Part shown: positions 272-64,000 of the stretch, one piece after another
Numbering within the stretch: position 1 is the stretch's first letter
How the letters are laid out: each line of letters starts with the position of its first letter
Source: an uncultured bacterium
GTDB taxonomy: Bacteria; Patescibacteriota; JAHJAL01
Direction of reading: 5' to 3'
Length of the DNA: 64,000 nucleotides
Assembly (NCBI GenBank): GCA_938004065.1
Contig: CALKWM010000013.1
Coordinates: 2,457 to 66,456 of the forward strand
Made by a program: the position numbers and the translations under genes
The notes under the pieces: model-generated
Seen by the model: only the letters and a program-made list of their open reading frames with translations
Database searches by the model: none
What the model was told of the DNA's origin: nothing

Positions 272-558
272 TGAGTAAGAAATAAGAAGTAAGAAGTAAG
301 AAGTAAGAAATAAGAAACAAGAAACAAGAAACAAGAAAGTATCAAGGATCAATATCCAATATCCAATATTCAATATTCAATATGCAATAAGCAAGAAAGT
401 ATCAATATTCAATATTCAATATGCAATAAGCAAGAAGCAAGAAACTAGAAGCAAGAAACAAGAAGCAAGAAACAAGAAAGTATCAATATTCAATATTCAA
501 TATGCAATAAGCAAGAAGCAAGAAGCAAGACACAAGACACAAGACACAAGACACAAGA
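272..558. repeat. Heptamer-periodic simple-sequence repeat array, ~290 bp, immediately 5' of pyk.
   Basis: Tandem 7-mers AAGTAAG/AAATAAG x5, CAAGAAA x3 and CAAGACA x4. There is a ~40-bp higher-order unit AGTATCAATATTCAATATTCAATATGCAATAAGCAAGAA x3, also made of 7-mers. Confidence 0.9.
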
Positions 559-731
559 GAAAGTAACATGGATTAATAGGTGGTAAGGGGTCAGTGATGA
601 GGGGAAATGATTTAAGAATTTGTATTAAATATTATATACGCATATTTATAATATCCTAAAAATTGAAGATAAAAAAATCACTCCGTGAAAACGTTTTTCA
701 GGAGTGATTTTAAGCAAAATCGATGAAAAAA

Positions 732-3575: not shown

Positions 3576-3643
3576 AGGGTAGAAATTAAGAGATTGATAT
3601 TTATAATTTTGTAACTTATGAAATTGGAATTTGAAACTTGAAT

Positions 3644-7871: not shown

Positions 7872-7909
7872 GTATGCGCCCAAGGCGCACCAGATGACTG
7901 GAAAAGTAA
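7872..7909 (+). promoter_or_regulatory. Conserved 38-bp double-dyad element, copy 1 (GTATGCGCCCAAGGCGCACCAGATGACTGGAAAAGTAA); on the coding (minus) strand it ends 23 nt upstream of the rnj ATG.
   Basis: Exact 38-mer shared with copies at 37494 and 53515/53556. It contains the dyads TGCGCC-CAA-GGCGCA and CCAG-ATGA-CTGG. Confidence 0.6.
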
Positions 7910-9723: not shown

Positions 9724-11880
9724 TTATTTATTTCTTTCTTTGTATGGTGGTTTTTGATGGTGGGATTTACTGGAAGAATTTTGTTCTGAATTTAAATTGG
9801 TGGTCAAGTTAATACGGCCTTGAGAATCTATTTCGGATACTTTAACTTGGACTTGGTCGCCAACATTGACGACGTCAGTTACTTTATTGACGCGATGAGG
9901 AGCTAGTTTGGAGATATGAATCAGACCTTCTTGTTTTGGCAGTATTTCTACAAAGGCACCAAAATCCATAATTCTGGTAACAGTACCGGTAAAAATTTCG
10001 CCGGCTTTGATTTCGCGAGTGAGATTTTTGATGAAGTCGGCGGCTTCTTGAGTTTTGACGGCGTCGGTGCCAAAGATAAAGACATTACCATCATCTTCGA
10101 TGTCGATAGTGGTGCCGGTTTTGTCGATAATTTCATTGATCATTTTGCCTCCCGGTCCGATGACTGTACCGATTTGTTCCGGTTTGATTTTGAGGATCAT
10201 GACGCGTGGAGCATATGGAGACAATTCGGATTTTGGTTGGCTGATGGTGGCCAGCATTTTTTGTAATATGTGGAGACGTCCTTTTTGAGCGGAATTGATG
10301 GCGTCTTTGATGATATCGTGGTTAATGCCTTGAACTTTGATATCCATTTGCAGAGCGGTAATACCTTCATCGGCACCGGTTACTTTGAAATCCATGTCAC
10401 CAAAGTGATCTTCATGACCGGCAATATCGGATAAAATTTTGTATTGACCTTGTTCGTTGATTAAAAGTCCCATAGCAACTCCGGAAATTGGTTTTTTGAT
10501 CGGGACGCCGGCTGCCATCAGTGAAAGAGTGCTACCGCAGGTTGAGCCCATGGAAGTGGAGCCGTCAGAAGACAGTGCTTCCGAGACAACGCGAATAGTG
10601 TAAGGAAAGTCTTCTTTGGCGGGGATGACTGGCAATAGAGCTTTTTCGGCTAAGGCGCCATGTCCGATTTCTCTTCTGCCGGGACCACGAAGTGGCCGTA
10701 CTTCGGTTACGGAATACGGAGGAAAATTATAATGATGCATGTATCTTTTGGTTGTTTCAGACGCCATTCCTTCGATGATTTGTTCATCGCTGGTGGAACC
10801 GAGAGTGGTGGAGGTGAGAATCTGAGTGTATCCACGGGTAAAGAGACCGGAGCCATGAACTCGGGGTGAAATGTCAATTTCACATTCGATTGGTCGGATT
10901 TCGTCTAGTTTGCGACCATCGATACGGGTTTCAGTGTTGAAAATCTGATCGCGAACGAATTTTGTCAGAGTTTTTTCCCATGCTGAAGATAGTTGTTTTT
11001 TGGTATATTTGCCGATAGTTTCTTCCAGAGAACCATGTTCGGAAAATAATTTGTCAAATAATGGTTTGATGTTTTGGTCGCGTTCTTTTTTGTCAGAGGA
11101 GCAGATAGTTTCAAAGACTTTATTTTGGACAAAGAAATCATTTACCAATTTATCCAAATTTTCATCAACAGGTTCCGGCTCAATAATTTGAGGTTTTTTC
11201 CCCAATTTGGCCGCCAACTCGTTTTGGATGGGGATACATTTTTTCAATTCATCATGGCCCAGTTTGATGGCTTCGATTATTTTGTCTTCCGGCAATAAAT
11301 TGGCGCCGGCTTCAATCATCATAACCGAATCAGCGGTACCGGAGACGATAAGATCAAGATCGGAAATTTCCAGTTGGGCTTTGGTGGGGTGGGCAATTAA
11401 TTCATTGTTGATACAGGCAACTCGACAAGCGGCGATCGGTCCGGCAAATGGTGCTTCGGCCAGCAATAATGAAGCGGAGGCAGCGATAGTGGCGGCGGTA
11501 GAGGGGTCGTGGTCGGCATCAAGCGAGAGGACACTGACAATGATTTGGATGTCATGGCGAAAATGTTGGGGAAATAGGGGGCGTAGCGGGCGATCAATCA
11601 AACGAGAAGTCAAGACTGCCAGTTCTGATGGACGACCTTCGCGTTTGATAAATCTGGAGCCGACGATTTTGCCGGCGGCGTAGTATTTTTCTTCATAGTC
11701 AACCATGAGAGGGAAATAGTCGATTCCTTCACGAACGTCGGTAGAAATGTTGGTAGTGGCTAAAACCAATGTATCGCCCCAACGGACGGTAACCGCTCCT
11801 TTGGATAGTCTGGCAAATTTGCCGGTTTCAATGGTTAGTTCGTTTTGTCCGTATAAAATTGAAGTTTTGGTTGTTTGCAT
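9724..11880 (-). CDS. pnp: Polynucleotide phosphorylase (PNPase).
   Basis: Two RNase PH domains followed by KH and S1 (GEIFTGTVTRIMDFGAFVEI) domains; 718 aa. Confidence 0.95.
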   Translation of the reverse strand: MQTTKTSILYGQNELTIETGKFARLSKGAVTVRWGDTLVLATTNISTDVREGIDYFPLMVDYEEKYYAAGKIVGSRFIKREGRPSELAVLTSRLIDRPLRPLFPQHFRHDIQIIVSVLSLDADHDPSTAATIAASASLLLAEAPFAGPIAACRVACINNELIAHPTKAQLEISDLDLIVSGTADSVMMIEAGANLLPEDKIIEAIKLGHDELKKCIPIQNELAAKLGKKPQIIEPEPVDENLDKLVNDFFVQNKVFETICSSDKKERDQNIKPLFDKLFSEHGSLEETIGKYTKKQLSSAWEKTLTKFVRDQIFNTETRIDGRKLDEIRPIECEIDISPRVHGSGLFTRGYTQILTSTTLGSTSDEQIIEGMASETTKRYMHHYNFPPYSVTEVRPLRGPGRREIGHGALAEKALLPVIPAKEDFPYTIRVVSEALSSDGSTSMGSTCGSTLSLMAAGVPIKKPISGVAMGLLINEQGQYKILSDIAGHEDHFGDMDFKVTGADEGITALQMDIKVQGINHDIIKDAINSAQKGRLHILQKMLATISQPKSELSPYAPRVMILKIKPEQIGTVIGPGGKMINEIIDKTGTTIDIEDDGNVFIFGTDAVKTQEAADFIKNLTREIKAGEIFTGTVTRIMDFGAFVEILPKQEGLIHISKLAPHRVNKVTDVVNVGDQVQVKVSEIDSQGRINLTTNLNSEQNSSSKSHHQKPPYKERNK

Positions 11881-15831: not shown

Positions 15832-15869
15832 GTATGCGCCCTAGGCGCACCAGATGACTGGAAAAGTAA
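15832..15869 (+). promoter_or_regulatory. 38-bp double-dyad element, copy 2 (CCTAGG variant), ending 10 nt upstream of the mature tRNA-Thr 5' end.
   Basis: GTATGCGCCCTAGGCGCACCAGATGACTGGAAAAGTAA. A degenerate partial copy (GTATGCCCCTAGGGTGGAAAGTA) lies at about 15925. Confidence 0.55.
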
Positions 15870-29897: not shown

Positions 29898-30989
29898 ATG
29901 GTGTTGATATTGGGAATTGAAACTAGTTGCGATGAGACGGGAATTGCCATCGTGGAAGATGGGAGTAGGATTGTGTCCGAAAAATTAAAAAGCTCGGTTG
30001 ATTTGCAGGCGGAATACGGGGGGGTGGTACCGGAATTGGCTAGTCGGGTACATGTGGAGTATGTAAATATTTTGATAAAAGAGGCATTGGATGAGGCCGG
30101 TTTAACCATGACGGAAATTGATGCGGTGGCGGTGGCCAATGGTCCGGGATTGGTGGGAGCTTTGTTAGTGGGAACAATGGTGGCCAAGACGATCGGATTG
30201 GTGGAGAAAAAAAAGTTGATAGCGGTAAATCATCTGGAAGGACATATTTTCTCATCTTTTTTATCATTAGAAAAAAAAGATGAAAAGTTACAAGTATCAA
30301 GAATCAAGGATCAAGTTCTAAGTGAAGAAAAAAACAAGAAAATGATTTTTCCGATGGTGGTTTTGATAGTTAGTGGAGGACATACGGAATTGGTGTTGAT
30401 GGAAGATTATGGAGTGTATAAAATCTTGGGTAGTACGATTGATGATGCGGCCGGCGAAGCGTTTGACAAAGCGGCGAAAATTTTGGGATTGCCATATCCG
30501 GGAGGGCCGAGCATTGCACAGAGTGCTGTGCAAGTATCAAGTATCAAGGATCAAGGATCAAGTAATGAGGAGATAAATTTACCGAGGCCGATGTTGAATT
30601 CGAAAGATTATAATTTTTCTTTTTCGGGGTTGAAAACGGCGCTGTTATACAAAATTACTAATGATAAATTACAAATTACTAATGAAAAGATAAGAAATAT
30701 GTTGGCGTGGGAATTTCAGGAGGCGGTGTGCGATGTATTGGCCAAAAAAACCAAGCGGGCGATGGAAGATTTGGGAGTGAAAAGATTGGCGGTGGTGGGC
30801 GGGGTGGCGGCCAATCAAAGATTGCGGGAGAAATTGCATGAGACAATTGATGATGAGATTGCGATTCCGGAGTTTAAATATTGTACTGACAATGGGGTAA
30901 AAATTGCCACAGCAGGGTATTATAAGTATAGAGTTGGTAATTTTATCGATTGGCAGGATTTGGAGGTAAAGAGTAATTGGAGTTTGTAA
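29898..30989 (+). CDS. tsaD: tRNA N6-adenosine threonylcarbamoyltransferase TsaD (Kae1/YgjD), carrying two in-frame heptamer-repeat insertions.
   Basis: MVLILGIETSCDETGIAIV, HLEGHIFS, SGGHTEL and GVAANQRLRE motifs. The inserted segments encode EKLQVSRIKDQVLSEE and VQVSSIKDQGSS and are written in CAAGTAT/CAAGGAT heptamers. Confidence 0.9.
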   Translation: MVLILGIETSCDETGIAIVEDGSRIVSEKLKSSVDLQAEYGGVVPELASRVHVEYVNILIKEALDEAGLTMTEIDAVAVANGPGLVGALLVGTMVAKTIGLVEKKKLIAVNHLEGHIFSSFLSLEKKDEKLQVSRIKDQVLSEEKNKKMIFPMVVLIVSGGHTELVLMEDYGVYKILGSTIDDAAGEAFDKAAKILGLPYPGGPSIAQSAVQVSSIKDQGSSNEEINLPRPMLNSKDYNFSFSGLKTALLYKITNDKLQITNEKIRNMLAWEFQEAVCDVLAKKTKRAMEDLGVKRLAVVGGVAANQRLREKLHETIDDEIAIPEFKYCTDNGVKIATAGYYKYRVGNFIDWQDLEVKSNWSL

Positions 30990-37493: not shown

Positions 37494-37531
37494 GTATGCG
37501 CCCAAGGCGCACCAGATGACTGGAAAAGTAA
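37494..37531 (+). promoter_or_regulatory. 38-bp double-dyad element, copy 3, flanked on both sides by AAGTAAG repeats, 36 nt upstream of the PilB-like ATG.
   Basis: Exact 38-mer GTATGCGCCCAAGGCGCACCAGATGACTGGAAAAGTAA. Confidence 0.6.
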
Positions 37532-44476: not shown

Positions 44477-45877
44477 TTATTTTTTATTGGCGTAATATAA
44501 TATTGTGTTGGAATAACCTCTATTAGCGTCACCAAACTCGGCTAGTTCCAAATCGGACCAGGAGATTTTGGTACGATTGCGATTGCCCGGATCGTTGAGG
44601 ATTACTCCTTCTTGATCATACCCGACGGCAACGACAAAATGGCTGGGACCACCGGATGACAAATTGGGACCGCCACCAAGGACTACCGGTATTCCTTTGT
44701 CCAAATAAGTGGTAATGGTCTTTTGTTGTTGACTGAAATCAAAAACGAATTGATTTTCTTCAACGATAATATCCGGGTATTCGCTGTGGATGTTTTGGGC
44801 AGTAACTGTGATACCGGTTAAACTGCATACAGATGTTGGGTCAACGTCTTTGCCCATAAATTTTAGTACCATAGCAAGAGAGGTGCAGTAACAGCCGGCT
44901 TTTTGGATATCGGCACTGTAATCACCTTGATTAAAATACCACTCACGCGGTTTGTCCAGTGATTTGGCACCGGAGGGTGTGTCGTATGTTGGTGTTACTG
45001 CTTCGGCTTGGGTGGAAATATCGGTTGGGTAGTGTTTGTTGCCACTGCCCATGCCACCCATAGCTAGAAAAAGGACAACAATTAGAAAAATTATGATGAC
45101 GATAATGATGATGATCAAAATAACTACTACTACCGGCCAACCAACCGCGGCAGCGCCTCCGGCGGCAGCGGCAGTTCCACCAGCGGCAGCGGCAGCTCCG
45201 CCCGCTGCAGCGGCACCTCCACCAGCGGCGGCCACGGTTCCACCGGCAGCAGCTGTACCGGCACCGGCTGCTCCCGCTCCCGCGGCTCCGGCACCGGCTC
45301 CGGTTGCACCAGCAGTGCCAGCACCAGTTGCTCCCGTGCCTGCTCCGGCACCGGCTGACGGACCACCCGGTGGCATTTTGCCGGTAGGTGTTTTTGGGGA
45401 TTGCGTGCCCGGCTGACCGGGTTTTTGACCGGAACCGGGTTTGTCCGGTTGCTTGTTTTTGTCGGCATCTTCGCGATTAATCTTGCGGTTTTTGTCCGGT
45501 TGGGATTTGTCCTGGTCGGTGTCTTGTTTGTCTTTATCTTTGTCCTGTTTTTTGTCTTTATCCTTGTCTTGATCTTTTTCTTTGTCCTTGTCTTTATCCT
45601 GATCCTGATCTTTATCTTTATCTTTATCCTTTTCTTTTTCTTTGTCTTGATCCTGATCTTTTTCTTTGTCAGGTTCCTGGTCGGGTTTTTTTTCCGGAGA
45701 TGGTTGTTCCGGACTACTGGTACTTTGTGGTGAAGTGTCGGGTTGGCGGTCAAGATTGATTGATTGCGGTTCTGATCCACCGGCTGATGACGATTGTCCG
45801 CCACCTGGTGTGGAGGTACCGGATATATTTATCTCAATGTCTTTTTTTTCGATATCTTCGCGTTTGAATTTGGCCAT
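44477..45877 (-). CDS. Membrane-anchored papain-like cysteine peptidase (Peptidase_C39-like domain) with a disordered KD-repeat and Gly/Ala/Thr-rich N-terminal region.
   Basis: The N-terminus contains (KDKD/QDKD) repeats, then a GAGAGTGATGAG stretch, then a single TM VVVILIIIIIVIIIFLIVVLFLA. The C-terminal domain carries a catalytic-Cys motif AGCYCTSLAMVL and a His motif PSHFVVAVGYD. Confidence 0.6.
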   Translation of the reverse strand: MAKFKREDIEKKDIEINISGTSTPGGGQSSSAGGSEPQSINLDRQPDTSPQSTSSPEQPSPEKKPDQEPDKEKDQDQDKEKEKDKDKDKDQDQDKDKDKEKDQDKDKDKKQDKDKDKQDTDQDKSQPDKNRKINREDADKNKQPDKPGSGQKPGQPGTQSPKTPTGKMPPGGPSAGAGAGTGATGAGTAGATGAGAGAAGAGAAGAGTAAAGGTVAAAGGGAAAAGGAAAAAGGTAAAAGGAAAVGWPVVVVILIIIIIVIIIFLIVVLFLAMGGMGSGNKHYPTDISTQAEAVTPTYDTPSGAKSLDKPREWYFNQGDYSADIQKAGCYCTSLAMVLKFMGKDVDPTSVCSLTGITVTAQNIHSEYPDIIVEENQFVFDFSQQQKTITTYLDKGIPVVLGGGPNLSSGGPSHFVVAVGYDQEGVILNDPGNRNRTKISWSDLELAEFGDANRGYSNTILYYANKK

Positions 45878-53514: not shown

Positions 53515-53593
53515 GTATGCGCCCAAGGCGCACCAGATGACTGGAAAAGTAATAAGTATGCGCCCAAGGCGCACCAGATGACTGGAAAAGTAA
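53515..53593 (+). promoter_or_regulatory. Two tandem copies of the 38-bp double-dyad element (53515-53552 and 53556-53593), 29 nt upstream of the lysin ATG, preceded by AAATAAG/AAGTAAG repeats.
   Basis: GTATGCGCCCAAGGCGCACCAGATGACTGGAAAAGTAA x2, separated by TAA. Confidence 0.6.
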
Positions 53594-53900: not shown

Positions 53901-55751
53901 TTACGCGCCCAGGGAGTTTTTGAGGGCCAAAACTTCTTCCGGGTTACTGGTAATGATGCGGTTTTCGGTGTAGGAGGCGACGATTTTGATTAAGACATGG
54001 TTCATACCGGCAAAGAAAATTCCTTCACCAACATTGGCTTCCAGAAGTGCCATTTTTTCACCGTCGGTTAGATGGAAAGTTTTGGCAATTAGGTCGATGG
54101 AGGCGGGGGATTGTTTGAGTAGGATTTGCATTGCTGAGTTGGAGATGATGGCTTTACCGTATTTTGATCCCAAGAAGTCTTCGACATCTTGGGAGATGGT
54201 GGTGATACCCAGGTAGTATTTACGAGATCGTTTGGTCAAGTTATGCAAAAATTTAGCGGAATCTTCGTATTGCATCAAGTTCCAGGCCTCGTCGATGATC
54301 ATGATACGCCTTTTGAGTTTGGTGCGGATTTTGGTCCAGATGAAGTGAGTGATAACAAACATGGCCACCGGACGCAAAGATTCTTCCAAATCACGGACGG
54401 AAAAGACGATCATGTTGGTGGTCAGGTCGATATTGGTGTGGTGGTTTAATAGTCCGGCGTAGGAGCCCTCGGTGTATTTTTGCAGACGACGGGCCATGGA
54501 TTCGGATCCCTGCATATTGGCCAGAACGTTTTGCAGGTCTGAGAGCAAAGGTGGGGGATTTTTATGCGAGACGGGATCTTCGGTAATGTCTTTGAGAGCG
54601 TATGCTTCCTTGATAGCGCGATCCATGATGGCTGATTCTTCGGGTGTTAATTGACCCAACATGATGCTCATCAGAGCTCCCAGTTCAACCACACTGGAAC
54701 GCAGGGCGTTTTCTTCTTCGCCTTCACTGGTTTCCGGTAAGTCGAGAGGATTGATTTTCTTTTCGGAATTGAGATTGATTGGGATGTAAGTGCCACCGAC
54801 GGCTTCACATAGGGTTTGGTATTCGTTTTCCGGATCGATAATAATGATGTCAGTTCCCAACATCAGGTAGCGTAAGCATTCCAGTTTGACGGTGTAACTT
54901 TTACCGGCACCGGAAGTGGCAAAGATGGTACAGTTGGGGTTGGCCAGATCGAAGCGGTCAAAAATTACCAGAGATTGATTGTGGCCGTTAAATCCGTAGA
55001 AAATGCCGTTGTCACTGGTTAGGTCAACGGAGGTGAAAGGAAATGTGGTGGAGATGGCGTCAGTATCCAAGTTGCGGGTGATGTACAATTCGTCATTGGC
55101 TAGAGGTAGGGTGGAATTAAAACCTTGTTCTTGTTGAAGAATGGCATTTTTAGTATAGATCAGGGCGCCACCGAGGGTGGTTTCCAAGTGATCGACATTG
55201 GCTTTGAGTTCTTTTTCACTGTCGGCGTAAACGGTAAAATACATGCCAAATAGAAAAAGTTTTTCGCTGCCTTGTTGGATACGATAGCGTAGTTCTTCCG
55301 CGTCCTGGATAGCGGTTTCCAGTTTGGGGTCGGATACTTCACCTTTTTCGCGATTGATGGCGTATGTGGCTTGCATGCGGCCGACTCGGTTGCGGAGGTC
55401 TTCCAATACGGCTTTACTTTCCTGTGGATAGATATACATACTGATGTCCATGGTGGCGTCGTAGGCGATGATGGGGGAGAGCCAGTTGGTGGTTAAAAAG
55501 CGGGGATAGGTAAAAACAAACAGAGTTTGCACGTAGCTGTTGTTGATGATGATGTAGTTGGGATTGATACGGAAAGCGCTGGGAGCGAGGATATCTTTGA
55601 GAGTGGACATACCTTCTTCGAAGACGGCACGAGCTTCTTGCAGATGTTTTTTTTCCGTTTCCAGACGTTTTTTCTCCTCCAAAGCTTTGAGTTTTTCCGG
55701 ATCTTTGGGTTTACGTTGGAAGAGGTTTTTGATTTTATCGGTTATGGCCAT
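53901..55751 (-). CDS. VirB4/TrbE/TraE-family conjugative (T4SS) ATPase, Gram-positive-like type.
   Basis: 616 aa. N-terminal region with YPRFLTTNWLSPIIAYDATMDISMYIYP. Walker A FATSGAGKSYTVK, Walker B IMIIDEAWNLM, and a C-terminal DUF87/AAA_10-like region. Confidence 0.75.
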   Translation of the reverse strand: MAITDKIKNLFQRKPKDPEKLKALEEKKRLETEKKHLQEARAVFEEGMSTLKDILAPSAFRINPNYIIINNSYVQTLFVFTYPRFLTTNWLSPIIAYDATMDISMYIYPQESKAVLEDLRNRVGRMQATYAINREKGEVSDPKLETAIQDAEELRYRIQQGSEKLFLFGMYFTVYADSEKELKANVDHLETTLGGALIYTKNAILQQEQGFNSTLPLANDELYITRNLDTDAISTTFPFTSVDLTSDNGIFYGFNGHNQSLVIFDRFDLANPNCTIFATSGAGKSYTVKLECLRYLMLGTDIIIIDPENEYQTLCEAVGGTYIPINLNSEKKINPLDLPETSEGEEENALRSSVVELGALMSIMLGQLTPEESAIMDRAIKEAYALKDITEDPVSHKNPPPLLSDLQNVLANMQGSESMARRLQKYTEGSYAGLLNHHTNIDLTTNMIVFSVRDLEESLRPVAMFVITHFIWTKIRTKLKRRIMIIDEAWNLMQYEDSAKFLHNLTKRSRKYYLGITTISQDVEDFLGSKYGKAIISNSAMQILLKQSPASIDLIAKTFHLTDGEKMALLEANVGEGIFFAGMNHVLIKIVASYTENRIITSNPEEVLALKNSLGA

Positions 55752-55800
55752 GGGTGGAAAGAATTAATATCTAATGTGAATAATAATTTGTGAAAATAAA

Positions 55801-55838
55801 CAAAGTATCAAGTAACAAGTATCAAGTAACAAGTATTT
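55801..55838. repeat. (CAAGTAT CAAGTAA)x2-3 heptamer array just 5' of the VirB4-like gene.
   Basis: CAAAGTATCAAGTAACAAGTATCAAGTAACAAGTATTT. Confidence 0.8.
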
Positions 55839-55869
55839 TGAGTCCCTCGACTTACGCTCGGGACGATAT

Positions 55870-56562
55870 TTATTCACTCGTTCCGGAGATGACGTCAGAG
55901 GTTAGGGATTCGATTTTGAAAAGTTTTTGATGGCGGGAGGTGGTGGGATTGAAGTGGTTGTACATCAATTCGGTGATTTCCTGGGTGGATAGGGTAACGG
56001 CACTAAGTCCCATCGATCCCAATCCGTTGGTGATAACGTTGATGCGCTCGGAGATTTTTTCTTTGGCCAGTTGAAAATCTTTTTCTTTGACGATAATTTC
56101 GTTGGATGATGGAAAAAGTTTTTGCCAAAACCCCTTGGTGGGAGCGGATGGGGGATAATAGGAAACTACCAGGAAGAATTTTTTTTCCATGACATTGGTA
56201 ACTTCCAGCAGACGCTGGATAAAGGCGATGTATTCTTGCATTTGAATTTTCAAGAGATCGTTTTGCTGTTTGATTTCCAAATCTTTGAGTTTGGAGATGT
56301 AGTCGGTTAAATCCAGTTTTTTGGATTGGACTATTATCTGAACCGGAAATGCCAGTGAATTTAGAAAGTTTTGGTATTGGTAGATGATGGCGTTTTGTTC
56401 GTCATCGGATTTGAGATCGAAGTTGACACTGGAGGTTAGCAGGATGCTACGCAGACTGCCGTCTTTCATGATGACCAGACCGTCACGGATTTCTTTGAAT
56501 GGGATATAGTTTTGGGTGGAGTTGCGGGGGTTGTGGGATTTTTTTTTGGTTTTTTTCTTCAT
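55870..56562 (-). CDS. Hypothetical T4SS-associated protein of 230 aa, between the VirB3-like and VirB4-like genes.
   Basis: Basic N-terminus with no TM. The IPFKEIRDGLVIMKDGSLRSIL segment loosely resembles VirB4 N-terminal regions. The gene is tightly linked, with 118 nt to the VirB4-like start. Confidence 0.4.
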   Translation of the reverse strand: MKKKTKKKSHNPRNSTQNYIPFKEIRDGLVIMKDGSLRSILLTSSVNFDLKSDDEQNAIIYQYQNFLNSLAFPVQIIVQSKKLDLTDYISKLKDLEIKQQNDLLKIQMQEYIAFIQRLLEVTNVMEKKFFLVVSYYPPSAPTKGFWQKLFPSSNEIIVKEKDFQLAKEKISERINVITNGLGSMGLSAVTLSTQEITELMYNHFNPTTSRHQKLFKIESLTSDVISGTSE

Positions 56563-56700
56563 AAAATCTAAAATGACTAAATGATTATAATTGCAGAATT
56601 GAAATATAGTAATAATTGTCTAAATTTTGATAACCAATATTTCCTTGGAAAAAAAATATGAAATCTTCTCGTTAAATTGGATATTGATATTTGATAATTG

Positions 56701-57375
56701 TTATTTACTACGAGCTATTTCGAGCATTTTTTGTTTTTTGTCTTCTTTCTGTTTGACCGCTTCTTCGTTGACCGAGGGTTGAGCTTTCGGTTTTCTGGTA
56801 AACAGGCCGGTAATGGTTGAGGAAAGTTGTTTGAATCCGGATTGGATATTGTGGGCGATGGATTTGGTGGCTTCGGAAGTGGACGGGATGGGTTTTTTGG
56901 TTGGTGTTGAGTGTTGTTCAACATTTAATTCTTCGGCTTTGGCGCGGATGTCTTGAGGAGTCATCTGGGTGTCGAGGATAAGTGATAGTTGTTGCAGTTG
57001 AGATTTAACTTCTTCCGGATGTTTGATGGCTTCAATTTCACTTTTTTTGTCTTCTTTTTTGGCCTGGGGAGCGGTTTCAAATACGGGAGGTGGTAGTTGT
57101 AGCCACAGTAAAGTTTTAGGTTTAAATAAAAACAGGACAAAATTGGCGACAAATTTGGAAAATGGTTGTTCATTGACGGGTACAAATGCAAATGCCAGAG
57201 CCATCAGTGCCACCGGGATCGAAAGGGCGTAGAAATAGTTGTTGTATCCGACATAAATATACACTACGTATATTATACCTGATGCGAAAAGCAGGTATAA
57301 AAATTGTTCGAGGGTGAGTGGACCGATAATCTGGTCCGGCATTTTGATGTTTTGTGGGACTTTGAATTGGAGCAT
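56701..57375 (-). CDS. VirB3-like small two-TM protein (PrgI/ConD/TcpE-like) with a K/E-rich C-terminal tail.
   Basis: IGPLTLEQFLYLLFASGIIYVVYIYV (TM1) and ALSIPVALMALAFAFV (TM2), followed by a hydrophilic tail. The gene sits between the VirB6-like and VirB4-like genes, as VirB3 does in other T4SS loci. Confidence 0.45.
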   Translation of the reverse strand: MLQFKVPQNIKMPDQIIGPLTLEQFLYLLFASGIIYVVYIYVGYNNYFYALSIPVALMALAFAFVPVNEQPFSKFVANFVLFLFKPKTLLWLQLPPPVFETAPQAKKEDKKSEIEAIKHPEEVKSQLQQLSLILDTQMTPQDIRAKAEELNVEQHSTPTKKPIPSTSEATKSIAHNIQSGFKQLSSTITGLFTRKPKAQPSVNEEAVKQKEDKKQKMLEIARSK

Positions 57376-57382
57376 GGTTTGT

Positions 57383-59821
57383 TTATGTAAATATCACGAG
57401 GTCGCTTAGGTAGTCGTCTTTTTTTGTATTAGCATTGAATTCTTTCATTTTGTCAGTCATCGATTTTTTAGAGTCTTTCATGGTTTCGAGAAGTTTGGAA
57501 TCTTTACCAAAGAATTTTTCTTTGGTTTCGTTAGATGATTTGAGAATAAAATATTCCATTTGAGCATTAAGATCGTCTGCTCTTTTACCTTTAGAAATGG
57601 AGGATTTTAGTGTAGAAAAATCACCTTGAGTTTCAATATCGGCCTTTTTTGTTTTTATGTTTTGATAAACAATATATTCAGGTTCGTCTTTAGGTGTTGA
57701 TGATATTTTGCTATCAACATTTGACATATTAATATTTAACTTGGGATTTGATGCTGAATTATCGATTATTTCTTTGATTACTTTTTGTTTTGCATTATTT
57801 GCTTTTTCAAATGTATTTTGCATTTGAAGCTTGTTTAAACTGGGAAGAAAAGTACCTGATTCATCAGTTTCTAAAGCTTCGACTTTTTTGATATAGCTAT
57901 CATCAAATCCAAGGTTTCTAAGTTTACTAACCATACTGCTTTTGTTGCCGTTTTTGAGGTTTTCGCTCAGATTTTGTAAATCTAAAGATCCAACTTTATT
58001 GTTATGTACACCAATTAGATTGGAGGCATTGTTTTTGGCTTGTTTTGTAAAGTCGTCTTTAAAATGCGTTTTAAGTTCCGTCAAGTTTCTTGGGACGCCG
58101 GTAGCTTCTTTTTTATAATGTAGTTTTAGATCGTTTTGAATGTTTTGTTCAACTTTACTGGAGTCTATACCTGACTTGAGAGTTAAACCTCTTCCGGTAC
58201 CTGTTAATTCATCGTTGATACTTTCGGGAGTATAGTATCTAGACAATATATGAGAGTTAACATCTGGGTCAGAACTATCAAATTCTTTTGGTTTGGGGCC
58301 GGCCAGAAAGTCTTTGTTGTATAATAGCCAGTTATTTTCGAGAAATTTGGTGGCATCAGCATGACCGGGATGAAATTGGTTTTGGGCTCTTTGAGCTAAT
58401 TCTTTGTTCATACCGGCTAGCTCATTGAACGCATCTCCATCTCTCAATGTTTTGTCGCGGTATTTTTCAAAGTCAGGATGCTTTTGTATGTTTTTTATCA
58501 GATCGCTTGATTTTGTACCTTTGAATGGTTCGTCTGAATCTTTTGTCAACGATCTAAGAATTGAGTCTCTCAATTTGATATCTTCTTTGGTGGTTGGGTT
58601 TTGATTGAGAGTAGTTTGTAGTTGTCTGCTTTTTAGTGATGTTTCCGCTCTTTTGGAAGTTAACATTTTGTCATAAGATCTTTGACCGAGGATTTGGCCA
58701 AGTGCATTGAAATCTTTGTTCCAGCCCAATTTTTTGAAAGGTTGTATTGGGGCATGTGCAAGAGAAGATGCTCTCTCTTTCAACTGTAAAGCATTGGGGA
58801 TGTGTTTGGTGAGAGCTCCTTGCCAAAATTTCATGATCTGGCTACCGAGTCCGCCGAGCTGGAAGGGGACGATGAGAGCAGCGAGCATGATAGCGATACC
58901 GGCCAGATAGAACAGCCATTGTCGAGCAAATGTTTCCAGTCCGGAAACTATATCAGGTGCACCGGTGGTTGATTCTTCACTGGTTTGGAAAAAAGTAACC
59001 AAACGTAACAGGAAAAAAATAATGGGGGACATAAAAGCCCATTGGATAAAACCATCCATCCATTTTTGACCATAGGTGCGGGTTGGTGGAAAGAAAAATG
59101 CCAGTACTCCCAAAGGGGCGATGACGACCAGGATGTAGAGGATGATGATACGGGCTAAACTGACGATTGCCAGAGCGAGCATGACAACGGTGGGGACAAA
59201 AAGTATTAATAATGCAACGATTAAGCCCAAAATTGTGCCGGCTCCAATACCACCCATCATACTACCGATAGCCATAGCGCTCAGGAGATTTGTTACTACC
59301 GCTGTTATGGCTTTTGCTTCTGTGGTATCAATATTGGCCAAATCAACTCCGGTAATAAAAGACATCAGTTGCATGCCCAGTCCTTCACCGCTTGCGGTTG
59401 GACCGGATATCAATTCAAAAACGATAATGTCGGTAAAATCAAGAACCGCTTTACAGATGTAGAGACTGAAGTTAGCCAGCAATAATCCGGCTACCAGTGA
59501 AGGAAGGGTTTTTTTGATTTCGTATGTTTCCAGATTGAGCCGCAAGGCATTGGCGAGGGCCAGAGCCAGTAAAAAGAAAACGGCGGCGATATTGACATAG
59601 TAGATGGAACTTTCCCAACCGGAACTGATCATTTCCGAGAGCCGGACTTGGGAAGCTCCTTGCAAAAGGTAAACCGCAAGATTAGTTAAAAAGAGGACTA
59701 CACTAAGTACAACTTTGAGGGTGTCCATGAATGTCTGTGAAAGACTTTCAAGTATCGCAGTTTTAATACCGGCAACGGGCAAGATGAAAGTAATGATGGA
59801 TTGTGAAAAAATGTCTGGCAT
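57383..59821 (-). CDS. VirB6/TrbL/ConG-like polytopic membrane protein with a large hydrophilic C-terminal extension.
   Basis: Six or more TM helices in the first ~330 aa, then a ~480-aa K/D/E-rich soluble region. The gene ends 8 nt before the VirB3-like gene. Confidence 0.55.
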   Translation of the reverse strand: MPDIFSQSIITFILPVAGIKTAILESLSQTFMDTLKVVLSVVLFLTNLAVYLLQGASQVRLSEMISSGWESSIYYVNIAAVFFLLALALANALRLNLETYEIKKTLPSLVAGLLLANFSLYICKAVLDFTDIIVFELISGPTASGEGLGMQLMSFITGVDLANIDTTEAKAITAVVTNLLSAMAIGSMMGGIGAGTILGLIVALLILFVPTVVMLALAIVSLARIIILYILVVIAPLGVLAFFFPPTRTYGQKWMDGFIQWAFMSPIIFFLLRLVTFFQTSEESTTGAPDIVSGLETFARQWLFYLAGIAIMLAALIVPFQLGGLGSQIMKFWQGALTKHIPNALQLKERASSLAHAPIQPFKKLGWNKDFNALGQILGQRSYDKMLTSKRAETSLKSRQLQTTLNQNPTTKEDIKLRDSILRSLTKDSDEPFKGTKSSDLIKNIQKHPDFEKYRDKTLRDGDAFNELAGMNKELAQRAQNQFHPGHADATKFLENNWLLYNKDFLAGPKPKEFDSSDPDVNSHILSRYYTPESINDELTGTGRGLTLKSGIDSSKVEQNIQNDLKLHYKKEATGVPRNLTELKTHFKDDFTKQAKNNASNLIGVHNNKVGSLDLQNLSENLKNGNKSSMVSKLRNLGFDDSYIKKVEALETDESGTFLPSLNKLQMQNTFEKANNAKQKVIKEIIDNSASNPKLNINMSNVDSKISSTPKDEPEYIVYQNIKTKKADIETQGDFSTLKSSISKGKRADDLNAQMEYFILKSSNETKEKFFGKDSKLLETMKDSKKSMTDKMKEFNANTKKDDYLSDLVIFT

Positions 59822-60021
59822 GTTTGTTTATTTTTTTATCGTATTATTGTATCAAATTTGTTCCTGTTTTGTCAAGGTTTTTTCTGAGTAAAATTTGGGG
59901 GGAGGAGTAATGTTACCAAAATTTATCGGTGCTAGTAAATGGTTTTTTTTAGAACGTTTTTATGACATGAAAAAACTACCAGAAATAAGTGGTAGTTTTT
60001 TGTTGAAAGTTGATTATCAGA

Positions 60022-60366
60022 CTATGCTTTGCCCGTTTGCAAGAAAGTGATGGTGAATTCAATGATCATATATGCAAGCATAATTACGATTAATCCAATA
60101 ACAGACCAGGTGATGGTGGAAACCGCTTGTTTGGAATTTTCCGGATTGCCCATGGAAGTGATGTATTGATACCCGCCATAGACGATATAGGCGATGGCGA
60201 TCAGTCCGGCCAGACCGGTCAGGGTAATGGCAAACAGATTGATAATTCCCCAAACATCGGTGATGTTGGCGTGGTTTTTGAAGGGATTGAGGCTGTCAAA
60301 ATAACTTTCCGAAGAGAGTTGGTATTCTGCCATCAGATAGATAAAACGGCCGGTGATTGGATTCAT
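60022..60366 (-). CDS. VirB2/TrbC-like pilin paralog 1.
   Basis: 114 aa with two hydrophobic helices flanking the YGGYQYITSMGNPENSKQAVSTITWSVIGLIVI core shared by all seven paralogs. Confidence 0.6.
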   Translation of the reverse strand: MNPITGRFIYLMAEYQLSSESYFDSLNPFKNHANITDVWGIINLFAITLTGLAGLIAIAYIVYGGYQYITSMGNPENSKQAVSTITWSVIGLIVIMLAYMIIEFTITFLQTGKA

Positions 60367-60390
60367 TTACTTTTTTAGATAAAAAGAAAA

Positions 60391-60756
60391 TTATTTTATG
60401 GTTGGATCAACACCGAGGATGTTTTTCTGGACGGTGTAAACGATAGCGAAGGCGGCAAAGATGATGATCAAACCGATAACAGCGTTTAGCAAAGTGGAAG
60501 TGGCTTTTTTGGTTTGTTCCTCATTGCCTTGGGCGGTGATGTAGCTGAAACCACCGATGATCAAAAATACTACCGCGACTAGTCCGGAGATACCCAAGAC
60601 GTAGTTTAAAATCGTGATTATTAATTGTTCGACTTCTTGTTCCTGAGGAGTGTTGGTTGGTCTTTCTAGGGTTTCGGCAAAAGTGATGCCGTAGAGCATT
60701 ACGGTTGAGCCGAGAGCAGAGACTGCCGTAATCGCCTTTTTTACAGTTTTTTTCAT
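60391..60756 (-). CDS. VirB2/TrbC-like pilin paralog 2, the only paralog in the array with a classical Sec signal peptide and a strong SD.
   Basis: The start MKKTVKKAITAVSALGSTVMLYGITFA-ETL is signal-peptide-like and is preceded by AAGGAGA. Core IGGFSYITAQGNEEQTKKATSTLLNAVIGLIIIFAAFAIV. The ORF-track start at 60909 lies in the repeats and is rejected. Confidence 0.65.
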   Translation of the reverse strand: MKKTVKKAITAVSALGSTVMLYGITFAETLERPTNTPQEQEVEQLIITILNYVLGISGLVAVVFLIIGGFSYITAQGNEEQTKKATSTLLNAVIGLIIIFAAFAIVYTVQKNILGVDPTIK

Positions 60757-60766
60757 TTTTTTCTCC

Positions 60767-61095
60767 TTAAAAATAATATATTTTAATAAATAATAAGTAA
60801 TAAGCAATATGCAATAAGCAATATGCAAGAAGCAAGAAGTAATATGCAATATGCAAGAAACAAGAAGCAAGAAGCAAGAAGCAAGAAGTAAGAAAGTATC
60901 AAGGATCAATATTCAATATCCAATATCCAATAAGCAATATGCAAGAAACAATAAGCAAGAGACAAGAAGCAAGAAGCAAGAAGCAAGAAAGTATCAGGGG
61001 TCAATATCCAATATCCAATATCCAAGAAGCAATATGCAATAAGCAAGAAACAAGAAGTATGCGTCCAAGGTGCACCAGATGACTGGAGAAGCAAG
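60767..61095. repeat. Heptamer-periodic SSR spacer between pilin paralogs 2 and 3, containing a diverged copy of the 38-bp element at 61057-61094.
   Basis: Units AATAAGC, AATATGC, AAGAAGC (x3 runs), ATATCCA and AAGAAAC. The element variant is GTATGCGTCCAAGGTGCACCAGATGACTGGAGAAGCAA. Confidence 0.85.
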
Positions 61096-61120
61096 AAAGT
61101 ATTAATATTATTGCATGTTG

Positions 61121-61429
61121 TTAACTAAACAGTACATTAGTAAATAGAGTGTTTACTATAGCATATGATGCGAAAACAATCAAGAGGCCGATGATGGCAT
61201 AGGTAAGAGTCTGAACGGCTTTTTTGCTAGCTTCGTCATTGCCGGCGGAGGTGATGTATTGGTATCCGCCGTAAATTATGAAAATGATAGCGATAATACC
61301 GGCCAAATCGATAGCATAGGTGGCGATGATGAGGATTAGATCAGAAATTTCACCGCCTCCCAAAGGGTCGAGTGAGTTTTCGGGACTGGCGACAGCGAGG
61401 GAAGAGAAAAATTTGGTAATTAAGTTCAT
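61121..61429 (-). CDS. VirB2/TrbC-like pilin paralog 3.
   Basis: MNLITKFFSSLAVA leader, then ...DPLGGGEISD..., and the YGGYQYITSAGNDEASKKAVQTLTYAIIGLLIVFASYAIV core. Confidence 0.6.
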   Translation of the reverse strand: MNLITKFFSSLAVASPENSLDPLGGGEISDLILIIATYAIDLAGIIAIIFIIYGGYQYITSAGNDEASKKAVQTLTYAIIGLLIVFASYAIVNTLFTNVLFS

Positions 61430-61611
61430 AATAGATGGTAAAAAAAAGTATCAAAGATAAATAAGCAAGAAATAAGAATCAAGAAGAAAGAAGCAAGAAT
61501 CTGGTAAAAACAATAATTTTAAAAAAGAAGAATTTACAAAGAAAAATTAGTTGAATATTGCATATTGCGTATTGATTATTGCATATTGTATATTGCATAT
61601 TGCATATTTTG
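61430..61611. repeat. SSR spacer between pilin paralogs 3 and 4.
   Basis: AAATAAGCAAGAAATAAGAATCAAGAAGAAAGAAGCAAGAA, then TATTGCATATTGCGTATTGATTATTGCATATTGTATATTGCATATTGCATATT, which is the inverse orientation of the AATATGCAATA units. Confidence 0.8.
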
Positions 61612-61920
61612 TTACAGTCCGATGGCGGATTTGATGCTACGGACGATGATGATGGCGGCAAAGGCGACGATGATGCCGATGATGGCGTAGGTGAGGGTGG
61701 AAGTGGCTTGTTTGGCTTTGGTTTCGTCACCGGCGGAAGTGATATAGAGGAAACCACCATATATAACCATGATAACAGCGATAATCCCAACCAGGTCAAA
61801 AGCGTATTCAACGATACTGGTAATCAGGCCGGTAAGGTCTTTATTGCCCAAAGGGTCGGTAACTTTGTCTTCGAGTTTATCGATAGCGAGGGAAGAGAAT
61901 AGAGGTTGTAGTATATTCAT
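61612..61920 (-). CDS. VirB2/TrbC-like pilin paralog 4.
   Basis: The start MNILQPLFSSLAIDKLEDKVTDPLGNKD (ATG at 61920; the track uses an upstream TTG). Core YGGFLYITSAGDETKAKQATSTLTYAIIGIIVAFAAIIIV. Confidence 0.6.
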   Translation of the reverse strand: MNILQPLFSSLAIDKLEDKVTDPLGNKDLTGLITSIVEYAFDLVGIIAVIMVIYGGFLYITSAGDETKAKQATSTLTYAIIGIIVAFAAIIIVRSIKSAIGL

Positions 61921-62111
61921 GTTCTTATTTTGAAGATAATATTTAATAAGCAATAAGCAATATGCAAGAAAGTATCAAGGACCAATATCCAATATCCAAG
62001 AAGCAAGAAACAAGAAGCAAAAAACAAGAAAGTATCAAGGATCAATATCCAATATCAAAGAAGCAATATGCAATATGCAATATTCAATTTCTAGGTGTTT
62101 TTAATATTGTT
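61921..62111. repeat. SSR spacer between pilin paralogs 4 and 5.
   Basis: AATAAGCAATAAGCAATATGCAAGAAAGTATCAAGGACCAATATCCAATATCCAAGAAGCAAGAAACAAGAAGCAAAAAACAAGAAAGTATCAAGGATCAATATCCAATATCAAAGAAGCAATATGCAATATGCAATATTCAA. Confidence 0.85.
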
Positions 62112-62492
62112 TTATCCGCCGATGGCGGAGCGGACAGTGCGGACGATTACCAATGCACCGAGGGTGATGATGATACCAATCACAGCGTAGGTGATGATGG
62201 ATTGGCCTTGTTTGGCTTTTTGTTCATCACCAGCGGAAGTTATGTAGATAAAACCGCCATAAACGAGCATAGCGACCGCGATAATGCCGACCAGATCGAA
62301 AGCGTATTCGATAACGTTGGTGATGAGATCGGTGATGTTTTGGCCGGGGATGATGCCTTCGAGAAAATTGATACGGTTGGAAAGTTGTGATTTAACAGCT
62401 TCCGGTTCGCCACCGCCGGCAGGTGTTGATCCGGTAACCGGAGCGATGGCTTCATCGGCTAAAAATGTAAAGAATGTATAGAGGGTGTTCAT
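62112..62492 (-). CDS. VirB2/TrbC-like pilin paralog 5.
   Basis: MNTLYTFFTFLADEAIAPVTGSTPAGGGEPEAV leader region. Core YGGFIYITSAGDEQKAKQGQSIITYAVIGIIITLGALVIV. The track start at 62609 lies in the repeats and is rejected. Confidence 0.6.
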   Translation of the reverse strand: MNTLYTFFTFLADEAIAPVTGSTPAGGGEPEAVKSQLSNRINFLEGIIPGQNITDLITNVIEYAFDLVGIIAVAMLVYGGFIYITSAGDEQKAKQGQSIITYAVIGIIITLGALVIVRTVRSAIGG

Positions 62493-62771
62493 CGAAGTAA
62501 TAAGTGAAAAGTAAGAAGTAATAAGTAATATGCAATATCCAATAAGCAATATGCAAGAAGCAATAAGCAATAAGCAATAAGCAAGAAGCAAGAAAGTATC
62601 AATAACCAATATTCAATATCCAATAAGCAAGAAGCAAGAAGCAAGAAAGTATCAAGGATCAATATCCAATATCCAATAAGCAATATGCAAGAAAGTATCA
62701 AGGACCAATGTCCAGTATCCGATAAGCAATATGCAATAAAGTATCAAGGATCAACATCCAATTTTTTAAGA
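62493..62771. repeat. SSR spacer between pilin paralogs 5 and 6.
   Basis: AAGTAAT, AATATGC, AATAAGC x3, AAGAAGC, the AGTATCAAGGATCAATATCCAATATCCAATAAGCAATATGC unit, and diverged copies toward 62760. Confidence 0.85.
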
Positions 62772-63200
62772 TTATGGTCCGGTGTTGGGGTTGAGCTGGT
62801 TGAAATTTTTGGGGTCGGTGGGGATTTCGGTAAATGAAACACCGGAAAATTGGTCGAGGAAAGTGCTGACGATCAGGTATGCGCTCATGGCTACCAGAAA
62901 TCCGATGATAGCATAGGTCAAAGTGTTTTTGCCTTTTTGGACCTGGTCTTGGTTTCCGGAAGACATAACGATAGTAAATCCGCCGATCATCATATATATT
63001 ATAGCAACAAAACCGGCGATGCCGATAAGATTTTTACCCAGGTATAGCAAAAAGCCGATGGCATCGATGAAAGTAAGTTTGGAAGGTGTTTTTCCAAATT
63101 CGTAACCTAGAAATGTGAGATTCTCCGCTTCGGCGGCGTAGGCGGTAGTCAGGAGATTGAGGTGGATTGTGGATAAAAATTGATAGATTTTGGTAAACAT
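62772..63200 (-). CDS. VirB2/TrbC-like pilin paralog 6 (more diverged).
   Basis: 142 aa. Core IGGFTIVMSSGNQDQVQKGKNTLTYAIIGFLVAMSAYLIV, with an extra ~35-aa C-terminal tail. Confidence 0.55.
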   Translation of the reverse strand: MFTKIYQFLSTIHLNLLTTAYAAEAENLTFLGYEFGKTPSKLTFIDAIGFLLYLGKNLIGIAGFVAIIYMMIGGFTIVMSSGNQDQVQKGKNTLTYAIIGFLVAMSAYLIVSTFLDQFSGVSFTEIPTDPKNFNQLNPNTGP

Positions 63201-63222
63201 AAAAATTTGATTATGAAAAAAA

Positions 63223-64000
63223 TCATGTTGCCAGTCCCAGGATGCTTTGGATGGAGGCCAGGATCAGAGAGGAGAGTAGAACGAGTGCCAAACCGATGAT
63301 GGCGTAGGTAAGTCCGGTTTGGGCTTTTTTGATAGTTTCCTGGTTACCGCCGGCGGTAACCATACCGTAACCATTGATGATGATAAATATGGTGGCGATG
63401 ATACCGGCTAATCCGAGCAAGATGTTGATAATTCGATTGAAAATAGGGGCTAACATATGTAGCAGATCGGCGTTTTCGGTGGGGATGTTGAGATTGGAAA
63501 CGACAAAGTTGGGGATGTTGTAGGTGATCGGTACAGTTTCTATGTTTTCACCGGGAGGAGTTTCGCCGTTGCTACATTGTTCCTCGGTGGCGAGGGTTGT
63601 TCCGGCCGGGCAGGTCTCACCTTGGATGGATTGGCAAAATCCGGAATCCGGATCCAGACAGAGGATGGTGCCGGCAGGAGGGGTGGGATTGGCAGGGTCG
63701 GTAGGATCGGAATTGATCTTCATGGCATTGACTATTTTGATCCTGGCGGCGGAGTCGGAACCGCAAACGATGGTGTCCAAATCGGTGGGGTGATCAACGA
63801 CGGTAACCGGTAGTGTACTGCAAATATCACGCAAAGCGGGAGGGAGAAAATCAACCGCGGTTTTGAATTGGCCGTATTGGGTACCTGGATACAATTTGGT
63901 ACCATTAGCGCCGAATCCTTGATCTTTGAGCCAGGTCAGTAATTCTTGACTGGCGGTAGTGTAGGGAGGACAATCATCGGGGTTTTCCGAAGGACATTCC
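63223..64000 (-). CDS. Larger protein with a C-terminal VirB2/TrbC-like pilin domain (paralog 7); the ORF stays open to the window end, so it is 5'-partial.
   Basis: C-terminal NGYGMVTAGGNQETIKKAQTGLTYAIIGLALVLLSSLIL core. The N-terminal part is Cys/Pro/Thr-rich. The reading frame continues past 63894 (the track's TTG start) up to position 64000. Confidence 0.55.
   Translation of the reverse strand, partial: ECPSENPDDCPPYTTASQELLTWLKDQGFGANGTKLYPGTQYGQFKTAVDFLPPALRDICSTLPVTVVDHPTDLDTIVCGSDSAARIKIVNAMKINSDPTDPANPTPPAGTILCLDPDSGFCQSIQGETCPAGTTLATEEQCSNGETPPGENIETVPITYNIPNFVVSNLNIPTENADLLHMLAPIFNRIINILLGLAGIIATIFIIINGYGMVTAGGNQETIKKAQTGLTYAIIGLALVLLSSLILASIQSILGLAT

Follow-up and report, generated by a model that had tools for sequence, protein, structure and literature searches.

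Why should a conserved cluster of pilin genes be interrupted by long runs of seven-nucleotide repeats, and do these repeats serve the pilins? The question is raised by one end of a 64,000-nucleotide stretch of DNA (contig CALKWM010000013.1 of assembly GCA_938004065.1, from an uncultured member of the Patescibacteriota; the whole stretch is hereafter called the window), where genes for VirB2-like pilins of a type IV secretion system (T4SS) lie in tandem with heptamer repeats between them. An earlier note, made from the letters of the sequence, had read this locus as a phase- or antigenic-variation cassette. We found a conserved Patescibacteria T4SS pilin operon in which eight VirB2-like genes, none identical to another, stand in a fixed order, and a genome-wide dispersed, lineage-specific heptamer repeat that has expanded into four intercistronic gaps of this ancestrally compact operon. 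Between strains, gain and loss of repeat units and modules is much faster than change in the flanking sequence. Nothing points to a dedicated on/off switch for the pilins or to an antigenic-variation cassette. At slightly better than even odds (roughly 55%), we favour the reading that the repeats are fast-evolving, dispersed passengers which, as intercistronic leaders, may tune the pilin cistrons in the manner of a slow rheostat.

Pilin genes were assigned with Pfam family PF18895 (T4SS_pilin, the VirB2-like pilin of Patescibacteria; gathering cut-off 26.6 bits). All seven minus-strand open reading frames (ORFs) of the cluster scored above this cut-off (36.2-53.0 bits). They are g1 (60022..60366, 114 amino acids (aa), 48.6 bits), which is the final gene of the pilin array, g2 (60391..60756, 121 aa, 53 bits), g3 (61121..61429, 102 aa, 38.6 bits), g4 (61612..61920, 102 aa, 49.7 bits), g5 (62112..62492, 126 aa, 46.9 bits), g6 (62772..63200, 142 aa, 39.1 bits) and g7 (63223..64000, running past the window end), which has a C-terminal pilin domain (36.2 and 35.5 bits) and a long N-terminal extension. 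In the alignment of g1-g7, two hydrophobic helices flank a short polar loop, IYGGFxYITSxGNxExxKKA, followed by TLTYAIIG. The seven VirB2/TrbC-like paralogs of the earlier note, and its layout of a helix, YGG(F/Y)xYITSxGNxExxKKA, TLTYAIIG and a second helix, were thereby borne out. Sequence beyond the window was read from contig DAIUKQ010000005.1 (L001) of the metagenome-assembled genome (MAG) GCA_036848155.1, which matched the window across the 16.6 kb compared and carries g5 at 7330-7710. On this contig g7 is complete at 296 aa (L001 5709-6599, reaching the window equivalent of 64113), and an eighth gene beyond the window end, g8, encodes 664 aa with a borderline pilin domain (25.8 bits, just under the PF18895 cut-off).

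The paralogs are far from interchangeable in sequence, with mutual identities of 27-65%. Against PF04956 (TrbC/VirB2; cut-off 27.9 bits) g2 alone passed (31.7 bits), while g3, g4 and g7 scored 16-26 bits and the remaining paralogs gave no match. We regard g2 as probably the major VirB2/TrbC-type pilin, because it is the only paralog that passes PF04956, the only pilin gene with a Shine-Dalgarno (SD) motif (AAGGAG), and the best conserved (79% identity to gene c of the relative L003). By sequence comparison g4 is a duplicate of g5; the two are 65% identical, and a single gene of the g4/g5 type is present in the relatives L003, L133 and L134. It should be noted that g5 is absent from the public annotation, in which an opposite-strand ORF (61962-62390) beginning inside a heptamer array is called instead. 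A 50-aa ORF at 62685-62837 is likewise derived from a heptamer array.

Arrays were detected with a stringent lag-7 criterion, and other lags and shuffled sequence served as controls. Lag 7 yielded 16 stringent arrays in the window, totalling 1196 bp, whereas no array was seen at lags 5 and 8-11 or in shuffled sequence, and a single short one at each of lags 6 and 12. The heptamer periodicity described in the earlier note is therefore real, and all the units that it named are present. Its statement that every intergenic spacer is filled with such repeats held for four of the six pilin spacers (182-364 bp) and failed for the g7-g6 (22 bp) and g2-g1 (24 bp) spacers, in which a parse into units found no arrays. 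Calling the spacers near-identical was an overstatement, since the pilin spacers are 79-88% identical across 130-230 bp, with exact common runs of 12-36 bp.

In the minus-strand direction of the genes, the g6-g5 spacer (62493..62771, 279 bp) holds about three to four modules of heptamers, with Tandem Repeats Finder (TRF) periods of 46 and 53, and its array reaches 5 nt before the g5 ATG. The g5-g4 spacer (61921..62111, 191 bp) holds two modules in the unit parse. The g4-g3 spacer (61430..61611, 182 bp) holds the sole inverted array, of about eight units (61551-61610) that are AATATGC-type in the mRNA sense, together with a few forward units (61459-61499). The g3-g2 spacer (60757..61120, 364 bp) contains two to three modules (60784-61056) and a 26-nt hairpin element (61061-61086), and its end adjoining g2 is a conserved AT-rich segment with AAGGAG.

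In the mRNA sense the units are TTGCTTC, TTGCTTA, TTGCATA, TTGGATA, TTGAATA, TTGTTTC and TTACTTC, each amounting to a G plus six mainly pyrimidine bases. They follow a grammar, (TTGCTTC)n (TTGCTTA/TTGCATA)n (TTGGATA/TTGAATA)n TTGATCC TTGATAC TTTC, with two to four such modules per spacer. The higher-order TRF periods (46, 53, 60, 74, 81 and 95) are each 4 modulo 7, which is consistent with k heptamers plus the 4-nt TTTC linker. The units are mixed, and in the pilin spacers perfect repetition of one unit extends to three to four copies at most. Predicted folds of the spacers did not exceed those of shuffles in stability (z -0.57 to +0.94) and Rfam gave no match in the spacers, its single match in the window being a tRNA; a structured RNA or riboswitch in the spacers is ruled out on these two grounds.

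The same repeat is found far from the pilins. Fifteen of the 16 stringent arrays are intergenic and 15 of 16 share one orientation, and they occupy at least 12 separate intergenic regions of the 64 kb. The few beside plus-strand genes keep the chromosomal rather than the transcriptional orientation. The largest array in the window (273..563, minus strand, 291 bp, three modules) ends 6 nt before the ATG of the pyruvate kinase gene (pyk) and has a 37-bp exact run in common with the g6-g5 spacer, 60 kb away. Shorter arrays lie about 2-14 nt from the starts of polA, glmS, a lysozyme-like gene and a gene for a pilB-like T2SSE ATPase. A short stretch of heptamer units also precedes the gene at 5941-7848, at a distance of about 10 nt from its start. 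Seven genes have an array that ends about 2-14 nt before the ATG and no SD motif; SD-like motifs precede 9 of the 45 genes of the window. The same units and grammar thus stand before housekeeping genes, and the arrays are therefore not a pilin device. As a separate observation, a plausible promoter seen by eye at about 640-668 would, with the array, give pyk a leader of about 360 nt consisting mostly of repeats.

Two further features accompany the repeat. Heptamer units (CAAGTAT/CAAGGAT) run in frame within the tsaD ORF at 30291-30316 and 30529-30565, and those at 30291-30316 fall in a 22-aa insertion relative to TsaD of the Kazan group. The 26-nt element of the g3-g2 spacer, GCGCCCAAGGCGCACCAGATGACTGG, consists of two adjacent small hairpins and occurs in six plus-strand copies (7876-7901, 15836-15861, 37498-37523, 53519-53544, 53560-53585 and 61061-61086), with zero expected by chance, amid heptamer units upstream of minus-strand genes. 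The exact 21-mer (AAGAAGC)3 was found in species-representative genomes, at least 120 of them, from many phyla (about 0.3 expected by chance in 596 Gb), including Flavobacterium and the cyanobacteria Microcoleus, Okeania and Oscillatoria, so tandem AAGAAGC is widespread, although some of these matches may be coding. The cyanobacterial STRR heptamers (STRR1-3) are dispersed intergenic heptamer repeats of the same broad likeness, with unit sequences that differ from those here.

A variant strain, represented by contigs L145, L146 and L147 from two other samples, ERZ28615714 and ERZ15185739, was found through g4 and g2 variants of at least 90% identity, and the comparison between strains took in the arrays of the pilin cluster. 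Coding DNA is 93-98% identical between the window strain, whose source samples are GCA_036848155.1 and SRR6007447, and the variant strain, and the array-free g2-g1 spacer is identical at 23 of 24 positions. The g1-virB6 spacer is conserved as well, and so are the first 25 nt or so past every stop codon and the last 35-45 nt ahead of every start codon. The array interiors, however, have been rebuilt: the g6-g5 spacer is 214 bp in the variant strain versus 279 bp in the window, and the g5-g4 spacer 328 bp (about six modules) versus 191 bp (two modules), lengths to be read with the proviso that the source is a MAG, in which the absolute number of repeat copies could have been assembled wrongly. 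After g4, the inverted array has two to three units followed by forward modules in the variant strain, versus eight units in the window, and the array next to g2 differs between the strains in the order of its units. The rebuilt interiors between conserved flanks identify the arrays as mutational hot spots relative to their flanks, and the array instability proposed in the earlier note is in this respect confirmed.

Within a strain the picture is different. The 328-bp g5-g4 spacers of L145 and L146, which come from separate samples, are identical; an independent Logan assembly is identical to the window array across 169 bp; and the four long contigs that carry g4 also carry an ORF encoded partly by the g5-g4 array. 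The comparison of related strains that the earlier note had suggested as a check therefore gave a divided answer, with lengths differing between strains and the compared portions identical within one. Such identity of comparable array portions is not like high-frequency switching, although consensus assemblies hide minority variants.

A tandem pilin array stands at the equivalent position in all relatives examined, and its spacers differ widely. In L003 (VirB4 95% identical) they are about 100 bp long with 9-10-mer repeats. In L004 (VirB4 86%) they are 0-82 bp without arrays, and in L006 (VirB4 85%) 18-167 bp with a single short (42-bp) heptamer array. In L133 (g2 76%) and L134 (g2 70%) the pilin genes overlap or abut, apart from g3-g2 gaps of about 55 and 85 bp, respectively, and arrays are absent. 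The AT-rich/AAGGAG segment of 40 nt next to g2 is kept in L133, L134 and the variant-strain contig L147, while the array beside it is absent from the first two and rearranged in the third. These compact, array-free clusters indicate that the ancestral operon was compact and that the arrays described here are later, lineage-specific additions. Heptamer arrays do occur elsewhere in relatives with VirB4 identity of at least 85%, for example a 333-bp array by a C39 peptidase gene in L004 (18 bp/kb overall), and the three more distant relatives that were sampled (VirB4 57-60%) have none or almost none. The unit sequences differ among the relatives' genomes, in which other T-rich 7-mers precede start codons.

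The paralogs match one-to-one by position across L003, L004 and L006. The orthologues of g1 are L003 d, L006 6 and L004 8; those of g2 are L003 c, L004 7 and L006 5; that of g3 is L003 b (75% identical); g4 and g5 together correspond to L003 a and L004 4; g6 corresponds to L004 3 (58%) and L006 1, g7 to L004 2, and g8 to L004 1. Pilin duplications are specific to each lineage, also where the spacers lack arrays (L004) or nearly so (L006). The recombinational shuffling of paralogs between spacers that the earlier note had envisaged is contradicted by the order conserved in L003, L004 and L006. Because this order is conserved among relatives, we infer that the paralogs are distinct subunits, with g2 as the major pilin and g7 and g8 as minor or adhesin-like ones, and not alternative antigenic copies.

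The T4SS core genes lie directly downstream of the pilins on the same minus strand (53901..59821), so that the pilins are upstream of virB6. Pfam identified genes for a TrbL/VirB6-like protein (57383-59821), PrgI/VirB3 (56701-57375), a TraC-like protein (55870-56562) and VirB4 (53901-55751), and a gene for a large lysozyme/GH3/C39/M23 protein follows downstream of virB4. The VirB4 of the window is similar to Patescibacteria proteins, with Berkelbacteria and Kazan as the closest named matches; the VirB6-like protein gave no match when queried against species-representative genomes. At the other end, a gene for a solute-binding protein (SBP; SBP_bac_1, L001 2360-3697) adjoins g8 with a gap of 2-6 nt, likewise in L004 (32-1342).

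Near-consensus promoters (TTGACA-17/18-TGnTACAAT, 11/12 matches) occur only twice in the pilin stretch, upstream of the SBP gene and upstream of virB6. The latter (59846..59875, minus strand, TTGACA-18-TGnTACAAT) is also found upstream of virB6 in L003, L004 and L006. Sites resembling sigma-70 promoters were no more frequent in the pilin spacers than in shuffles (10 vs 11.4; 16 vs 20.5), and none was near-consensus. The earlier note had placed the effect of unit number in a promoter or leader; with no promoters in the spacers, any effect of unit number would be exerted through an intercistronic leader and not through a promoter. After g1 lies a terminator-like hairpin with a 12-bp stem and a T-run (59970..60001, minus strand; z = -3.9 for the fold of the g1-virB6 spacer), conserved in L147. 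No intrinsic terminators were found within the arrays, and the hairpin after g1 is the sole convincing one. The pilin transcription unit would therefore probably end at this hairpin, and the arrangement is consistent with a single operon running from the SBP gene through g8 to g1, with the arrays transcribed as intercistronic RNA.

Under the reading that we favour, transcription would start at a single strong promoter ahead of the SBP gene and run to the hairpin after g1, and the arrays would be transcribed as unstructured, pyrimidine-rich leaders without SD motifs. Slippage or unequal exchange may cause the gain and loss of units and modules. With such arrays in place, neighbouring cistrons would lose the translational coupling of the abutting genes of the relatives, and each downstream pilin would rely on fresh initiation at the conserved start-proximal segment of 35-45 nt. 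Strains could then differ quantitatively in pilin stoichiometry according to array length.

Several points weigh against treating the arrays as passengers. Stringent arrays make up 51% of the intergenic bases of the pilin cluster versus 9.4% elsewhere in the window, and this five-fold enrichment may be a sign of selection favouring variability at a locus of host interaction. The core TTGGATATTGATCCTTGATAC is conserved in almost all modules, which hints at some unexplained constraint. The single-operon model has the consensus scan as its sole basis. Finally, there is a direct precedent, in that a pyrimidine-rich heptamer simple sequence repeat (SSR) in a 5' untranslated region (5' UTR) acts as an expression rheostat of an adhesin (hmw1A, PMC12721329).

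The first of the alternatives takes up these points and makes the locus a contingency locus or rheostat, in which frequent slippage alters leader length and produces subpopulations with different pilin mixes, aiding an epibiont across hosts. It accounts well for arrays that were rebuilt while the coding DNA stayed 93-98% identical and the flanks were conserved, and for the five-fold higher density of arrays in the pilin cluster. It can also draw on Haemophilus influenzae, in which the (ATCTTTC)n repeat in the 5' UTR of hmw1A sets the adhesin level (PMC12721329), and on a survey of Patescibacteria T4SS, whose authors speculate about a role of pilin arrays in adaptation to different host strains (PMC12102498). 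However, the heptamer repeat also precedes housekeeping genes (polA, glmS and pyk, which has the longest array), and orthologous pilin clusters do without it. Together with the identity of comparable array portions across assemblies and samples within a strain, these two facts speak against the phase- or antigenic-variation cassette of the earlier note. The arrays, moreover, consist of mixed units with no more than three to four perfect copies instead of a long homogeneous tract, they lack a long hairpin of the hmw kind, and they have no promoter. We therefore judge a contingency locus to be unlikely, though not far-fetched.

A second alternative gives the sequence of the units a function of its own. 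The G(Y)6 heptamers would be register sites for a protein that binds single-stranded RNA, with a cold-shock domain or an S1-type oligonucleotide/oligosaccharide-binding (OB) fold, and that recruits ribosomes to SD-less messages or protects them; the pilins would then be part of a genome-wide post-transcriptional regulon. Such a platform would explain why arrays abut the starts of seven SD-less genes, why a special start-proximal unit type (TTACTTC/TTATTTC) is conserved between strains, and why 15 of 16 arrays have one orientation. Relatives have other T-rich 7-mers before start codons, TAACTGA heptamers of Beggiatoaceae are equally placed and equivalent binders have been proposed for them (PMC4679880), and CspB of Bacillus subtilis prefers a pyrimidine heptamer, GTCTTTG/T (PMC1904285). 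On the other hand, the presence of arrays at orthologous sites is not conserved, close relatives differ in their unit sequences, the interiors of the arrays change freely from strain to strain, arrays at plus-strand genes keep the chromosomal orientation, and the binder is hypothetical. For a binding platform as such we see a rather small chance. A combined form is a tentative suggestion that we would still call doubtful, namely that a protein which binds single-stranded RNA in a 7-nt register reads the modular arrays as a translational rheostat that varies from strain to strain and, through resized intercistronic leaders, sets the stoichiometry of the pilins and of other genes preceded by arrays. 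If true, it would offer an ultra-small epibiont without dedicated regulators a cheap way of retuning its host interaction.

It is very improbable that the arrays are tandem weak promoters of sigma-70 type that give each pilin gene a separate transcript. One module scores 9/12 (TTGATA-16-GATACT), inspection by eye suggests TTGGAT-17-GATACT in the module core, and this core is the best-conserved part of the module. However, promoter-like sites are no commoner than in the shuffles counted above, the -10 element lacks the conserved first T, and the real promoters of the clade are near-consensus TTGACA/TGnTACAAT. That the arrays are mis-assembled short-read repeats, as the MAG source and the ends of contigs L002, L003 and L145 within arrays might suggest, is hardly credible given the exact match of the independent Logan assembly over 169 bp of array, the array-encoded ORF identical on four long contigs, the 328-bp variant spacer shared by two samples, and the presence of arrays in JGI and NCBI relatives too.

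The tandem pilin cluster itself is of a kind already known for Patescibacteria, because VirB2 arrays of 2-11 genes have been published. That 2025 survey (PMC12102498) reports 441 VirB2-like pilin arrays in Patescibacteria, with 2-11 genes, a mean identity of 25% and a maximum of 54%, and a T4SS cluster including the pilin array that is essential for epibiotic growth in Ca. Southlakia epibionticum ML1, the single Patescibacteria epibiont studied by genetics. Our cluster resembles those arrays in its tandem PF18895/PF04956 pilins by virB6, prgI and virB4, its 7-8 genes, its low pairwise identity, and the lysozyme/peptidase gene downstream of virB4. It differs in the 65% identity of the g4/g5 pair, above the maximum reported there, and in its four heptamer-filled spacers, of which we found no mention in the passages of the survey that were read. 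The virB2 paralogs of Bartonella and Anaplasma, which the survey cites, are likewise multiple, divergent and tandem at a T4SS used in host interaction; unlike in those families, our cluster has no architecture of silent cassettes and expression site, the gene order is conserved, and the genes are apparently co-transcribed.

For the repeats, two systems offer the closest comparison. The (ATCTTTC)n repeats of hmw1A/hmw2A in H. influenzae (PMC12721329) are likewise pyrimidine-rich heptamers upstream of a surface-structure gene and vary in length between isolates, with transcription through the repeat predicted in our case. In hmw, however, at least 11 perfect units form a homogeneous tract, and pairing of this tract with a G-rich arm creates a hairpin for RNase III, whereas the arrays here have mixed units (at most four perfect ones) and no stable predicted fold, are intercistronic, and also precede housekeeping genes. 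The TAACTGA repeats of Beggiatoaceae, Cyanobacteria and Bacteroidetes (PMC4679880) share with ours many intergenic sites, mostly one orientation, a position directly upstream of SD-less starts, an occasional location inside ORFs, and an unexplained function. They differ in unit sequence and host, since our repeat belongs to Patescibacteria and combines several unit types in a module with a 4-nt linker, and in length, with 2-6 copies in BOGUAY compared with arrays of 290-360 bp at most here.

We found no report in the literature of such heptamer repeats or of SSR-based variation in Patescibacteria, nor, in the searchable literature, a description in this group of a clade-restricted, oriented, grammar-bearing heptamer repeat that abuts starts. 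Our analysis adds a Patescibacteria lineage to the unexplained heptamer-repeat phenomenon of Cyanobacteria, Beggiatoaceae and Bacteroidetes. In one lineage a fast-changing repeat now resides mainly between the pilin genes, while the coding and translation-start segments stayed fixed. If array length affects expression, the arrays would be a simple source of strain-to-strain differences in host interaction.

A few minor observations concern repeats, gene content and base composition. In L006, heptamer arrays occur as inverted pairs, (AATTTCC)n ... (GGAAATT)n, at 2579-3056, 8928-9116 and 9807-10003; folded, they would give long hairpins behind T4SS genes, which is another use of the 7-nt periodicity. 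Long coding repeats with periods of 6, 21 and 42 at 45147-45670 of the window, in the N-terminal half of a 466-aa C39-peptidase-like protein (44477-45877, minus strand), are distinct from the heptamer family. In the distant relative L132, three 23S_rRNA_IVP (PF05635) genes are interleaved with prgI, the traC-like gene and virB4 (3032-5633). About 37 of 46 genes in the window are on the minus strand, and most coding strands are C-rich. GC skew is strongly positive window-wide (+0.06 to +0.48, mostly 0.2-0.4) regardless of gene strand, and should the leading strand be the one with G>C, the lagging strand would carry most genes of the window, polA included.

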